A program made the position numbers and the translations under genes. Under the pieces are notes generated by a model. That model searched no databases. It saw only the letters and a list, made by a program, of their open reading frames with translations, and was not told the origin of the DNA. Positions 10,871 to 63,339 of a stretch of 64,000 bases of DNA are shown here, one piece after another (within the stretch, counting starts at the first letter, position 1; each line of letters starts with the position of its first letter). This DNA comes from Eledone cirrhosa (taxonomy: Eukaryota), in NCBI GenBank assembly GCA_964016885.1, contig OZ024741.1:131626001-131690000 (forward strand), given 5' to 3'.

Positions 10871-11552
10871 CCACTATTTCGGGTTTGCTAATATGTTTCT
10901 ACCACTTTCGTAACCATATTTCTAAGGAAAGACACTACTTATGATTTCAAATAATTTTGAAAATAATCAAGAATTTGGATGGATATAGTAATATAAATAT
11001 CTCTCAAACTATTAAGTTGGTGTTTGGAAGAAATATAACTTAGCAAAAGTTCTTACATAAAATTATGATGGAAAGGTTTTAGATGAATATTAGCACATTA
11101 AAATAAACGGGTTAATTTCAAACAGTTTAGTATAAAAAATGTTATGAGGTTTTTTAAAAAATAAAAGCGACCTGATGATCATAGTTGAAAGGTCCTTTCA
11201 TTATAAGCTAACTAGACTAATGCTGATTTGGGGTTAAGCAATAAAATTAAAATACATCTGTATTCAGTCAAAACGCTCCTATAACACAATATTTAGCTCA
11301 TATTGCTCTACTAATAGAAACCTAATTGTATTATAGTATGCGGTATGTTCCCCTGAGACATTCCCCCACCTTGTCATATTATTAATAGACACACATGCAA
11401 ATCCTGAATTAAGTCTCCACGCCGCTCTCCCACCCCTCCCAAAATTTCTGAAATAATTTCAACGCTACACTGGTTAGGAAGTGCAACAGTCCATGCAAGG
11501 TGAACTCACATTTGGAATTTTCTGCTTGACTCCACAACAATGCTGCTAACAC

Positions 11553-15997: not shown

Positions 15998-16580
15998 GGG
16001 TAGTGAGTGAGAGAGAGAGAGAAAAAGCGAGAAAACAGATCTATTGACATGGGTCAGGGGTTTGTATTATTGTTTATTTGACCTCAGGTGACAAGAATCT
16101 CTTGCATTCCAAGCATTATAACGAGAGTTTATTCTTCTTCACAGGAGGGCAGGACATTTTATTGTATGTCATGAACTTTATAGACCTTCTATTCGTTACT
16201 GGTTACCTCGGGGTGAAATATGTGGCTAAAGGGTTTCTATAAAACTCGTGTACAGTAAAGAGAAACATGAGTGAAAAAGAAAAGGAAGAGAGATCTAGCG
16301 GTAGATGATAAAAATAGCAGTTAAGAGAGAGGGTAACATTGAGAAAGGTGAGAGATAGTGTGTATTATTGGTGATGACTGTAAATAGTTCGATTTATCTT
16401 AGTGGCTTTGAAGGTGATTTCCAGAAACAGTTCGGATCTAGCTGTCGAAACAGCCGGAACTCAGCCGTCGGGGTCCTGACTCTTTTCCTATTACCCACTC
16501 TACCACCCTAAGTATTAAGTACTCTGGTGCGTTATGGCCCACCTAGTATCTTACCACACCCTGTTTGTTATATATATATA

Positions 16581-16900
16581 CTAGCAGCAGGACCCGGCGT
16601 TTCACAGGATAGGACACGTGAAATAAAAACACGCATATGCAAAGATTGAGGAATGTAGCTGTGTACTTTTTGAATTCCCTTATTCTCAGGGAATGATTGT
16701 TTATCTACTGGATACGTAGAACACCAGCAGGCCCGAATCGGGAAACAACTGCATGCATGTGCAAAATCTGAAGAAAATCAGCTGGATACTCTTTAAGCGT
16801 ACTAAATCTTAGAGTATGATTTTTCTTCCATTTGGAGAAAATCGGTTAGGTACTTTTCGAGTTTTATAGATTCGCACCCAGGATATATATAAATAATGTA
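16581..16900 (-). mobile_element. Helitron-like fragment
   Basis: ctagcagcaggacccggcg terminus similar to 18319; the body shares aaaatcggttaggtacttttcgagttt with that family. Confidence 0.55.
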
Positions 16901-16925
16901 GGAGGTGAGTTTTATTGTAGCACAA

Positions 16926-17349
16926 TAAAGCAATGCAAATATCGGATAGGTAGCACTCTACAGCTTACAGGACTGGAGTATAAATAATATAAGATCAAAA
17001 GATGGTTAAAAGAGTTCCAAGTATTTTATTATGCACATTTCAAAAACAAATATCATCATGGGATGATATCTTTTTTCCCAATGATTATTTTTCCCAATCT
17101 CATATATCCATCTTATTTTATTTTTCATATGTTGATTTAAAACTTCACTGCTCACAAGTGTTTTTTAAGCTTCATATCATGTCTCCCTATTTTATCTGAT
17201 GAGAGCGCAGATATCATCCCATGATGATATTTGTTTTTGAAATGCGCATAATAAAATACTTGGAACTCTTTTAACCATCTTTTGATCTTATATTATTTAT
17301 ACTCCAGTCTTATAAGCTGTAGAGTGCTACTTATCCGATATTTGCATTG

Positions 17350-17354
<5 letters not shown>
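16926..17354 (+). mobile_element. Foldback element with ~145-bp inverted arms, hammerhead-bearing, next to (TA)n
   Basis: 16926-17070 is the reverse complement of 17210-17354 with few mismatches. The right end runs directly into (TA)n. Confidence 0.85.
17188..17258 (+). ncRNA. Type I hammerhead ribozyme motif with palindromic stem III
   Basis: tattttat-CTGATGA-[16-nt arm, ccat loop, 16-nt arm; 15 pairs counting G-U]-GAAA-tgcgca-TA-ataaaata. Stem I is a perfect 8 bp and the core is intact. Confidence 0.8.
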
Positions 17355-17441
<87 letters not shown>

Positions 17442-17879: not shown

Positions 17880-18040
17880 GATATGAAATCGTGTGTTGAA
17901 ACAAATATTGTTATATTTGGGGAGGGCCATATTTTTATAATAATGCCAGAAACCAACCCAAACCAAACAGTGAATGTGTTCTATTATTATTTCTGGCAAT
18001 ATTATAACAATATGACCCTCCCCAAATATAACAATATATA
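17880..18040. mobile_element. Inverted pair of Penelope 3'-region fragments
   Basis: The reverse complement of 17880-17930 matches 63725-63772. Arms of ~48 bp at 17904-17951 and 17991-18037, followed by (TA)n. Confidence 0.7.
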
Positions 18041-18318
18041 TATATATATATGAGCATGAGTTATAAATTCGAAAGAATGAGCTCTCGATTAGTAAACATA
18101 GAAGTAATATATATTAAAACATGGTCAGTAAGGCATGCATTTTCGTAAAATACACAAGTTTCATGTTGCTAGACTTTCAGTTGATATTCAGAGGTCCCTT
18201 TGCTCAATGGATAGAGTGCTCAACCGGTATCGGAGAGATACTAGGCTTGACATTTCGTAGCGGCCACTGACAACTTCTTTTTCTCTCTCTACGTTTCTTT
18301 ACTCTATTTTATTAGTTA

Positions 18319-19457
18319 CTAGCAGTGGTACCCGGCGTGCACGGGATAAGGTATTGTAATATGTAAAGAAAATAAACCGAATACTCTGATGGCTGGATAA
18401 TCTTTAAGATTTTCCTCGATGAAGCAGAAAAATGCAGGGCCCTAGGGGATCAAGAAAATAATTTTTTTTTATGTGCATAATATGCCTTGAAATATCGGGA
18501 AAATGGGCTAGACGTAAGGCCTCCAAAAAGCCCTAAAAAGCTGAAAAAAGTTGGATTTTCTTTGCTCACGGTATGAAGAAAAGACTGACTAATACATAGT
18601 TACAATTTCAAGGAAATCGGTCTGACGTAACGCCTCACAAAACCCCTAAAAAGCTTAAAAACGCAGTTTTTCACCTAATGCGGGCCCCAGGAGATCAAAA
18701 AGTTGATTTTTTTATGTGCATAACATTCCCTCAAACATAAGTAATACACATGTAAAGTTTGAAAAAGATCGGTTGGGTACTTCTCGAGTTTTAGGGATTC
18801 AAACTCACAGACACACACACAGACAGATATCCTAAGGGAAGTGACATATGCAGACAGCCAGACATACAGACAGATATTATAAGAGCGCGACGTTATATGT
18901 ATGTATCTATCTAAAAAGAGAAAAACTAAGAATTATAGAGAGAGATCGCTAAATCGCCTAATGCGGTCCCTAGGTCATTGAAAACTTGAAATTTCTTTTG
19001 CTCGGAACACTCCCTGAGTAAAGTGTAAAGTTTGAAAACATGTGTAAAGTTTGAAAACAGTCAGTTGCGTGCTTCTCGAGCTTTAGGGGTTCAAACTCAC
19101 ACACCACACAGACAGACATCCTCAGTTTTATATATATAGACTAGCAGAAAACCGCCCACGAGTGGTTTTCTGCTAGTCTATATTTATATATTACACACAC
19201 AGAAATGTATATATATTTCTGTTTGTGTATATATATATATATATATTACACACACACAGAAATGTATATATGTTTCTGTAGCACTCCTCAATTCCTCCCT
19301 CTCTCCCTCCCGCTATCCCCCTCTTGTAGTCTGTCTCTTTCTTTCACTCTCACTCTCTCTCTACGCGTGCGCCAAAAACATTCGCACGCGCGCACGTGTT
19401 CCCACTGTCGGACAGACAGACAAACAGAGAAATTGCTGGTTATATATTATAAGGAGA
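18319..19457 (-). mobile_element. Composite non-autonomous Helitron (modules 18319-19140 and 19141-19457)
   Basis: CTAG plus cccggcgtgcacggg hairpin at the left end; TC-type 5' ends on the minus strand at 19140 and 19457; internal subrepeats. Homologous to 52573-54103. Confidence 0.8.
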
Positions 19458-22920: not shown

Positions 22921-23468
22921 CTGTTTCTATATTCTTTATCTTCTGTTTTCTTTCATAGCCTCATTCCCTTCTTCCACCCAACCCTTCTTCTCTTAACCCC
23001 CGCCTCTCTGTATGACACTACATCCTTTCCAGCTCTGTGTGTGGCCCTATCAAGTTCATGTGTATGTGTGTGTCTATTTGTGTACATATATGTATCTGTT
23101 TCTGCAGTTTTTGCGTGTCTGTGTCTGTGTGCTTTGTATAAAATTGAAAACAAACTTCAAGAGATGAGGATGATGATGTATATATATATATATATATGAA
23201 AAAATGGGGTGAGGAATACTGCATGGTTGCACATGGATAACATGTTATAAAATGAGTCCCTCATCAGTGATTTACCAACGGTCATAGGTATTTCATTGCA
23301 TTAAAAATCATATACCTCACGTTGGCGCAATAATAACTAAAATAAGTTATTAGGACAATTAAAACGCGTAAAGCGAGTGAGACAAGTAAACAACACAGAG
23401 GAAAGCTAACCGAAGATAGGAAGAGATACAAGCTACATATATATATATATAGAAGTAGTAACACAATA

Positions 23469-23572
23469 GTTAGTTCACCATACTGAGAACAATTGTTTCA
23501 CCTTATGCGGATCCTCAGTCCGAGCTGAGGATCCGCATAAGGCGAAACAATTGTTCTCAGTATGAACTAACT
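23469..23572. repeat. Near-perfect palindrome containing a hammerhead-like motif
   Basis: catactgagaacaattgtttcaccttatgcggatcctcag pairs with ctgaggatccgcataaggcgaaacaattgttctcagtatg across a 6-nt spacer. Confidence 0.9.
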
Positions 23573-23651
23573 GGTGTGTTACTACTTCGACCAAACTCGT
23601 CCCATGGACTGAGTGCTCTACTACTACGGATATTACCTTCCAGTGTTGTAC

Positions 23652-38892: not shown

Positions 38893-39698
38893 GATAGAAA
38901 AGTTATTGCAGTGATAGTATAATGTAGAGAAAGAGAGAGAGAGAAAGAAAAGGAAGGGATGGGTGAATAAAAACTAACGAAAAAGGAAAGCAAATGATTA
39001 TGAATGTGAAGGCGGGTAGGAGGTAGACATTATGGGAGAAGATGGTGGTGGAGGAGAAGGAAGAGAAGAACATTGCAATGAAGATAATAAATGGAAAGAA
39101 AAAGCGAGAGGATGCGAGAAAGTGGAAGTAAGAGGAAGAGAGAAAGAAGGGGGACGAAAGAGGGTGAATATGAGAGAAGAGTAGTGGTGGTGGTGGTGGT
39201 GGTGGTGGTGGTGGTGGTGGTGGTGGATGTTGGATCCTGGAAAGTGAGTGACAAAGAGAGCAGGCGACAGGAGTGGTAGGCGGAGGATGGGGAGGAAAAA
39301 CAATACTAATCTTAAGTTAATAAATCAAAGAAAGTGAAAGAGAAAAAGTTTGAATAAGGGGATGAAAGAGAGAGAGAGAGAGAGAGAGAAGTTATACACA
39401 CACACACACACACACATACAGATACACATATATATATCTGTGTATACACAAATACACACTGATACACACATATATATAAATATATGTAGAGGTTATATTT
39501 AATTTGTTGGGATACAACAAGCAAAATATTTTTATAACTGATATAAAGCACTCAACAAATTATTGGAGTAAATATACAATATATTAACAAATGGAAACTA
39601 TATTTATAAAACCATATTTATTTCATTATACATATTTCAAGGGCCACCAAGGCAAATTATGGTGCGCTTTCATCAGATAAAATATAATATAGGTTATA

Positions 39699-61577: not shown

Positions 61578-61941
61578 GATATGTGTGTGTGTGTGTGTGT
61601 GTGGATATGTGTGTGTGTGTGTGTGGATATATGTGTGTGTGCGGGTATATATATATATAAATATATAATAATAATAATAAATCCAAAAGTTTAAAAGGAC
61701 TTATAGTCCATTTAAACTGGTTTTACGTGCGTTTCAACAAATGAAATGTGAAGACTGCAGTTAATTGAAAATGTTCATGTGGTTAAGCAACATTTCTGTA
61801 CATGGATGTACATCTATATGCCAAGATCCAAGTATGAAACCAAAAACTTGTCTGAACATATATTTTCTATATGTCAGATATCTTCAGAAACATTTAAAAA
61901 TACTGCACATTATATGAATCGGTTCAGATAGATGGAACGGG

Positions 61942-63339
61942 TTGACCAGAGCCATACGGACACCCGAAAACCACGATGAACTGAAGAAAATGATTGCACA
62001 TGCGGTAGGGGCCAGCATAAAATTAACCCTTAAGGAACATATGTTCAAATTTAATGGAAAAACATATGCCAAAGAGGAAGGAGCAGCCATTGGTGTTAGC
62101 ATTGCAGGCGACATAGCTAACTTGTTCATGGTATGGTGGGACAGTAGACTTAAACTTAAACTTAAAGAACAATTAGAAGACAGCTTAACCCTGATAATGT
62201 ACTCCCGCTACGTAGATGATATAAACATCGTAGTTAAGACACCCCCACTAGAGAACAGTCAGGAACTAGAGAAAAACACAATGGAAAGCATCCAGCAAAT
62301 AGCAAACTCCATCCACCAGAGCATTAGAGTTACTATAGACTACCCAAGTAGACACCCCAACCATCGATTACCTGTACTAGACACAGAGCTCTGGTTAGAT
62401 ACCATTAACAACCAAAAACAAATCCTCCATTCCCATTATGCCAAACCCATGACTTCCAAACATCTGATCCACCGAAACTCGGCCATTTCGGACCATACCA
62501 AAATCAACATACTGATTGCGGATTTGGTACGGGTGATGAGAAATGTGTCCCGCATGTGCAACCCGGAAGAACTAGAGAGACACATACAACACTTCATCCA
62601 CCGTATGCAGTTCTCTGGCTACAATCAGAGAGATAGAATCAGAGTGTATAGAGGAGCCAGAACCAAATGGGAAAAAATGGTAAATAAGGACATAAATGGG
62701 ACCTGCCCCTTGTATAGGAGCAAATTTTGGAATAGAATAGAAAGAACTAGGAACAAGGCTAATAGAATAAACTCATGGTATGATAGCAATAAATACCAGA
62801 GTGTTATGTTCATCGATACAACCCCTAGAGGCGAACTAGCCTACAAATTTAGAAGGGCCCTAAATAAACATAAACTCAATATTAAGATAGTAGAAAGACC
62901 AGGTACCTCCGTAAAAACACTTATTAGCAAGACATACCCGTTTCAAAGACCCTCATGTATAGATAAGAAATGTATAACCTGTAAAATAAGCCCCCATATT
63001 AACTGTATAACTAGAAATGTAGTGTATAGCATAAGATGTACTGAAGGACAATGTAGAAACAAAAATATAGTGTACATAGGTGAGACAGCTCGTAGTATAG
63101 GGGAACGGATAAATGAACACTGGCGAGACCTTCAAGATAATAAAGAATCATCTGTACTCTACCAACATGCTAAGATAGAACACAAGGGTAAATTAGAGAA
63201 CATAGAAATAAAAATAGAATCTACACACAGAAAAGATGCAATGTTTAGACAAATTACAGAGGCAATAAACATAAAAGAATTACAACCAAAATTAAATAGA
63301 AAATATGAGTGGAACAGCAACATCACAACTTACAATTAA
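61942..63339 (+). CDS. Penelope-like element ORF, 5'-truncated: RT C-terminal half, Cys-rich linker and GIY-YIG endonuclease
   Basis: 465 open codons. RT motifs GAAIGVSIAGDIANLFM, YSRYVDDI and LPVLD; linker CIDKKCITC; GIY-YIG motifs NVVYSIRC...VYIGETARSIGERINEH...EAINIKELQPKLN. Confidence 0.93.
   Translation: MTRAIRTPENHDELKKMIAHAVGASIKLTLKEHMFKFNGKTYAKEEGAAIGVSIAGDIANLFMVWWDSRLKLKLKEQLEDSLTLIMYSRYVDDINIVVKTPPLENSQELEKNTMESIQQIANSIHQSIRVTIDYPSRHPNHRLPVLDTELWLDTINNQKQILHSHYAKPMTSKHLIHRNSAISDHTKINILIADLVRVMRNVSRMCNPEELERHIQHFIHRMQFSGYNQRDRIRVYRGARTKWEKMVNKDINGTCPLYRSKFWNRIERTRNKANRINSWYDSNKYQSVMFIDTTPRGELAYKFRRALNKHKLNIKIVERPGTSVKTLISKTYPFQRPSCIDKKCITCKISPHINCITRNVVYSIRCTEGQCRNKNIVYIGETARSIGERINEHWRDLQDNKESSVLYQHAKIEHKGKLENIEIKIESTHRKDAMFRQITEAINIKELQPKLNRKYEWNSNITTYN

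Follow-up and report, generated by a model that had tools for sequence, protein, structure and literature searches.

A hammerhead-bearing foldback in Eledone cirrhosa as a probable head-to-head pair of truncated Penelope-like element ends

Introduction

Penelope-like elements (PLEs) of the Hydra clade encode a reverse transcriptase (RT) together with a GIY-YIG endonuclease at the C terminus in a single frame, with RW and DKT motifs, a CxCx5C linker and CxxC/CxH residues around E and N. Their pLTRs carry a hammerhead, they insert into (TA)n, and an insertion comprises an inverted 5′-truncated copy and a tail at one end. These features, taken from the accessible part of Craig et al. 2021 (PMC8557442), are shared by the family of Eledone cirrhosa described here. 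Differences from the same text concern the tail, 81 nt here and 30–40 bp in the PLEs described there, and the unit, which measures about 3.6 kb, more than 1 kb of it 3′ UTR, and not generally below 3 kb. The E. cirrhosa family also has RWI or RWT instead of RWK, a very high copy number and a fixed 5′ stop, which the accessible part of that source does not mention. The formation of inverted PLE insertions and the role of PLE hammerheads are listed there as open questions.

Biochemical evidence exists for a PLE of another clade, the Poseidon element PAc of the green anole. According to the accessible part of Frangieh 2024 (PMC11167929), PAc has two internal RT starts in vitro which define a tail, an AT-rich target is cut on both strands, and uncleaved RNA is the main template. 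The genomic evidence from E. cirrhosa points to a similar system. Unlike PAc, which starts inside the ORF, both ends are located upstream of the first ATG.

PLE hammerheads are of type I and located in the pLTR, with a helix III of 1–2 bp and a palindromic loop, and dual motifs occur on opposite strands 100–700 bp apart (Cervera and de la Pena 2014, PMC4209133, accessible part). The E. cirrhosa motif resembles them. It differs from the Schistosoma min-HHRs of that study, with a helix II of about 16 bp (7–8 bp there) and a helix I of 8 bp (4–5 bp there). Animal non-LTR retrozymes are also short PLE-derived sequences with a type I hammerhead, but are organised as head-to-tail tandem units (bioRxiv 10.64898/2026.07.22.740005, accessible part). 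The locus described here has no head-to-tail units each carrying a hammerhead; it is a head-to-head pair with one complete motif, continuous with its parent element. Hammerheads in pLTRs, truncated copies in inverted orientation, tails and a preference for TA targets are already known. Among the titles, openings of abstracts and accessible parts of papers covered, no account was found of an 81-nt tail, of run-off at a fixed stop or of PLE foldbacks resembling MITEs.

Structure of the foldback

The window is a stretch of 64,000 nt on contig OZ024741.1 (131,626,001–131,690,000). It contains a foldback with inverted arms at 16925–17071 and 17209–17355, which are 147 nt long and 97% complementary with four mismatches, bearing out the 145-bp arms of the original prediction. 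The locus is very probably a head-to-head pair of 5′-truncated pLTRs of an autonomous Hydra-clade PLE in a TA repeat, likely formed in one insertion by two RTs on opposite strands of the cut target with the same uncleaved RNA as template. Coordinates are given in Table 1.

Table 1. Features of the foldback and its surroundings in the window.
Feature	Position	Strand	Remark
Left arm	16898..17071	-	5′-truncated PLE pLTR copy with the family's long 3′ end; broken off inside hammerhead stem II
Terminal 27 nt of the element	16898..16924	-	On the left arm only; missed by the boundary of the original prediction
Junction insert, 16 nt	17072..17087	+	Read directly from the sequence
Right arm	17088..17355	+	5′-truncated pLTR copy with complete hammerhead; stops 27 nt before the long end
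5′-end pile-up position, inferred transcription start	17127	+	Window copy reads through
Type I hammerhead motif, palindromic stem III	17188..17258	+	Cleavage predicted between 17250 and 17251
Short 3′ end of the family, second putative RT start	17301	+	81 nt before the long end; window copy reads through
(TA)n target microsatellite	17356..17439	.	Sequence

Both the left arm (16898–17069) and the right arm are 97% identical to a natural copy of the family, L033. The left arm lacks CUGAUGA, in agreement with the original prediction. The left boundary had been placed wrongly at 16926. The terminal 27 nt, which are the true 3′ end of the family, are found downstream of the right-arm equivalent in other matched loci of the genome. 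Their presence on the left arm and absence from the right arm mean that the ends are not symmetric. The right end had been taken for a fixed, ribozyme-side end. Position 17355 is a rare end with three exact matches genome-wide and corresponds to neither the long nor the short family end; the canonical end is on the left arm. The first 11 nt of the junction insert repeat the start of the right arm, and the insert may be an abortive copy or an end-joining insert. A variant common to both arms is present in 4 of 106 family copies. Beside the left end, a short TA run is located near 16882–16897.

The left flank (16579–16890) belongs to a dispersed repeat family (D8, D19 and D20) with copies at 18317–19147, and the PLE pair sits in its terminal TA run. 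An imperfect foldback of 135 nt adjoins the pair at 17905–18037; in L009 and L030, a similar sequence is found next to other pieces of PLEs.

The parent element

A search of the 3.0-Gb genome yielded 2,798 candidates, 40 of which were scored. Most scored matches cover only the right 267 nt of the foldback and run on for 27 nt; there they stop at a fixed position, and a TA-type repeat comes next. In the upstream direction, pLTR copies lead across the 3′ UTR to a frame that carries RT and endonuclease motifs. L033 has the order pLTR, ORF, 3′ UTR, pLTR and TA repeat, and the arrangement pLTR–ORF–pLTR was also seen in L228–L247. Adjacency to a PLE ORF, a check proposed in the original prediction, was thus found in relatives, which run from the pLTR into an RT and GIY-YIG frame. 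The combination of a telomerase-like RT with a GIY-YIG domain at the C terminus in one ORF is present in these relatives and absent from the window copy. The partial tandem pLTR–ORF–pLTR with an inverted 5′-truncated copy and the tail at one end, here with two ends 81 nt apart, are also features of PLEs.

The translated ORF contains RW followed by I or T, DKT, YRDD, CxCx5C and CxxC..E..N..CxH. These motifs match the Hydra clade features listed in the accessible part of Craig et al. 2021 (PMC8557442), but with RWI or RWT in place of RWK, and suggest a placement in the Hydra clade. Insertion into (TA)n is a further Hydra character: of 121 long ends sampled, 111 border directly on a microsatellite and nine continue to the ORF. 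A structure model of the ORF based on 35 sequences had a mean pLDDT of 83.5, and its top three fold matches were telomerase RTs. Pfam gave no credible match for the whole ORF or pieces of it and matched GIY-YIG in only 2 of 35 aligned homologues; a PDB sequence search with the ORF had no match.

Frames of a sister subfamily are open for 821 codons. This young sister subfamily (L228–L239 and L245–L247) has near-identical frames open for 818–823 codons, which suggests recent activity. More distant Hydra-like ORFs were observed near family copies (L043:5340–6794 and L046:3399–4493).

The long inverted arms and the TA flanks could also be read as a DNA MITE moved by a transposase, with a hammerhead present by chance. 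A MITE is expected to have fixed symmetric terminal inverted repeats and a uniform length. Here, the ends are asymmetric, the arm lengths vary from less than 30 nt to more than 3 kb, and copies are continuous with the RT–endonuclease frame. A MITE origin is exceedingly improbable, and the view of the original prediction that the sequence is Penelope-related and retrotransposed is upheld.

The hammerhead motif

The anatomy of the hammerhead was confirmed as originally predicted. Stem I is formed by TATTTTAT and ATAAAATA, followed in the core by CTGATGA at 17196–17202, GAAA and an AUA triplet with a predicted cut after A17250. Stem II has 16 bp with one C-U mismatch, and the palindromic stem III is ATGCGCAT. 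The conserved core and three helices are those of a type I hammerhead. An Rfam scan returned no hammerhead at E ≤ 1, so the call rests on sequence and family comparison.

Comparison within the family supported the motif. The core is intact by pattern in 213 of 244 copies. Among the 244 copies, none of the 12 core positions is polymorphic, compared with 17 of 88 flanking positions; loss of core conservation had been named beforehand as grounds for rejecting the original prediction. Lineage-level changes in the stems are Watson–Crick or G-U swaps which still pair on the sense strand in all eight cases and in none of the eight on the other strand. A count by exact pattern put the family's intact motifs at no fewer than 19,127 across the genome. 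Judged from these patterns, the hammerhead is characteristic of the family and selected at the RNA level, with cleavage itself predicted. At the window locus, it is likely a passenger.

Folding predictions depended on the context. Minimum-energy folding did not return the hammerhead. The centroid fold of the 71-nt stretch contained stems I and II, and the probability of stem I was low in longer sequence contexts. Helix III was unfavourable in the monomer; an intermolecular duplex was predicted at −10.5 kcal/mol. In a read-through RNA of the window foldback, stems I and II are predicted to be buried in the long duplex.

Two 3′ ends and paired arms

The family has two sharp 3′ ends. Exact matches to the long end with a TA-type repeat behind it number 10,640 genome-wide; for the short end, 81 nt upstream and likewise with a TA repeat behind it, there are 5,433. 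Both ends, loose and with TA tails, were also found in contigs of other sequencing runs, including two other organisms; the runs are of unstated kind, and one may be the source of the assembly itself.

The arms of a pair usually have different ends. Among 88 long-end copies, an adjoining inverted arm could be followed to its end in 49; it was short-ended in 47 and long-ended in two, proportions biased by a sampling anchored on end patterns and mostly on one contig. In 17 of the 88 copies, the long arm is shorter than 81 nt and has no sequence in common with a short-end partner. Such arms cannot be produced by one cDNA copying itself. Non-overlapping paired arms are the geometry of twin priming as in LINE-1. 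Paired arms belonged to the same subfamily in all 30 classed pairs (5 of 35 were unclassed). In 33 of the 35 pairs, one arm resembled the other more closely than the subfamily median. The head-to-head junctions carry microhomology or short inserts.

A fixed 5′ stop

Many arms also share their 5′ end. Of 88 long arms, 20 end within a few nucleotides of the equivalent of 17127, as do 28 of the 47 short partners. Junctions with both arms at this position number 2,003 genome-wide, compared with 62 at a control site. Ends with a non-templated letter next at 17127 number 5,009, of which a few percent are point mutants. Divergent subfamilies with different downstream sequence (L174, L193 and L197) were seen to stop at the same ATATGTTGA position.

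The stop sits at a pyrimidine–purine step, and 17127 may represent a capped transcription start. An RT that copies a cap is expected to leave a C after the stop. By hand count, C was next in 45 of the first 100 ends listed, a number confounded by the templated base and the CATATG palindrome. The letters among junction inserts in the loci sampled were C 11, G 10, A 5 and T 5 (script count). The cap signature at 17127 is only suggestive.

Hammerhead cleavage was considered as the main source of 5′ ends and rejected. The ribozyme cut site had 54 forward junction matches, mostly on the stem III palindrome and comparable to the control. True truncations at this site amount to about 80 genome-wide, compared with about 5,000 ends at 17127; the value of 80 is extrapolated from a hand count, without a matched single-arm control, of about 31 true truncations among the first 100 of 265 single-arm matches. 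Stops at the cut site are scarce, which indicates that the RNA usually serves as template in uncleaved form. One full-length copy, L245, begins at this site, and a minor use of cleaved RNA as template may occur. A hammerhead cutting at the UUC before 17127 was dropped as a candidate: on inspection of the sequence, the flanks are unable to form stems I and III.

Several full-length copies (L230, L232, L238 and L242) have a 5′ pLTR which reaches well upstream of 17127. They require multimeric, read-through or circular templates. That the ribozyme acts on longer or circular templates is speculation.

Foldbacks of about 430 bp with nearly the same ends might be copies of a non-autonomous, retrozyme-like element copied as a unit in trans by a PLE protein. 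The 2,003 foldbacks would agree with this, as would the identical junction in 24 of the first 50 listed and the non-autonomous PLE derivatives reported in the literature. However, the other 26 of these 50 junctions differ from the commonest one. Four copies with the identical junction have four different stem II variants, which are present on both arms in the three with both arms listed; this points to independent origins. Tandem monomer arrays are absent from the loci mapped, the predicted burial of stems I and II speaks against such a unit, and the junction of the window copy is shared by none of the other 39 scored matches. Copying as a unit in trans is unlikely. The original prediction of a separate non-coding element mobilised in trans found no support, as all 430 bp belong to the pLTR end of an element with an ORF.

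A single cDNA could alternatively snap back on a palindrome, or an antisense RNA could prime itself, after which the endonuclease would trim one of the arms at the AT-rich short end. Arkhipova 2013 suggested self-priming and Craig 2021 (PMC8557442) an endonuclease-mediated resolution, both cited from their accessible parts. The commonest junction is located on the CATATG palindrome, and the palindrome of stem III harbours a further class; near-identical arms would fit too. Against this, many pairs have arms which share no sequence or have sequence unique to each. Junctions on the longer palindrome of stem III number only in the tens, and a TTAA palindrome accounts for 3 of the first 50 control places listed, hence the pile-up at 17127 is not explained by palindromes. 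It is also where single arms with unrelated partners end. Snap-back formation appears slightly less probable still than copying of a unit in trans. Priming of two cDNAs on one RNA is the preferred reading.

Proposed formation of the paired insertions

The transcript would start in the upstream pLTR and contain, in this order, the hammerhead, the short site, the long site and the ORF. A transcription start in the upstream pLTR was reported for Penelope in Drosophila (PMC2377424, accessible part). The GIY-YIG domain may cut both strands of (TA)n. RT would begin internally at the two fixed sites, with one cDNA primed from each cut strand. The cDNAs would extend towards the 5′ end of the RNA, many of them running off at the probably capped start. 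End-joining of the two cDNA 3′ ends would create the head-to-head arrangement, and a double run-off would yield a product of about 430 bp which mimics a MITE. The full sequence of events, an RT dimer starting 81 nt apart on one capped, uncleaved RNA, with run-off, head-to-head joining and mass production of such mimics, is given a little better than an even chance.

The window copy is an atypical one-off compared with the family pattern, with its rare right end and its read-through of 17127. Its size of about 430 bp matches the common foldback products by coincidence, since 17127 was passed. The template would likely have been a downstream pLTR copy, and an unusual TA-like position may be where the right arm started or was trimmed. 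Taken alone, the locus is an ordinary fragment in decay. The importance lies in the family, which is young and has intact frames: its two sharp 3′ ends and its single sharp 5′ stop provide exact coordinates for the presumed starts of transcription and reverse transcription and for any use of cleaved RNA. If true, programmed twin priming would account for the inverted structure of PLE insertions, long without an explanation, and some annotated MITEs would be retroposed PLE strong-stop products. Repeat annotation requires caution, as PLE head-to-head products resemble MITEs.

Other elements in the window

A second foldback of a different family is located at 23452–23588. It is TA-flanked, contains a palindromic CAATTG and two outward-facing cores of hammerhead type (23518 minus, 23525 plus; hammerhead-like), and is probably another PLE head-to-head pair. 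A hammerhead-like motif at 39676 (minus) near a TA-rich repeat has a similar stem I and a different stem II; it likely belongs to a related PLE family. Putative CUGAUGA...GAAA cores were seen at 11172 (plus) and 25800 (minus). A frame of 473 codons at 61918–63336 (plus) with YVDD and a GIY-YIG-like end resembles a PLE of another clade, and related pieces are present in L009, L018 and L030.
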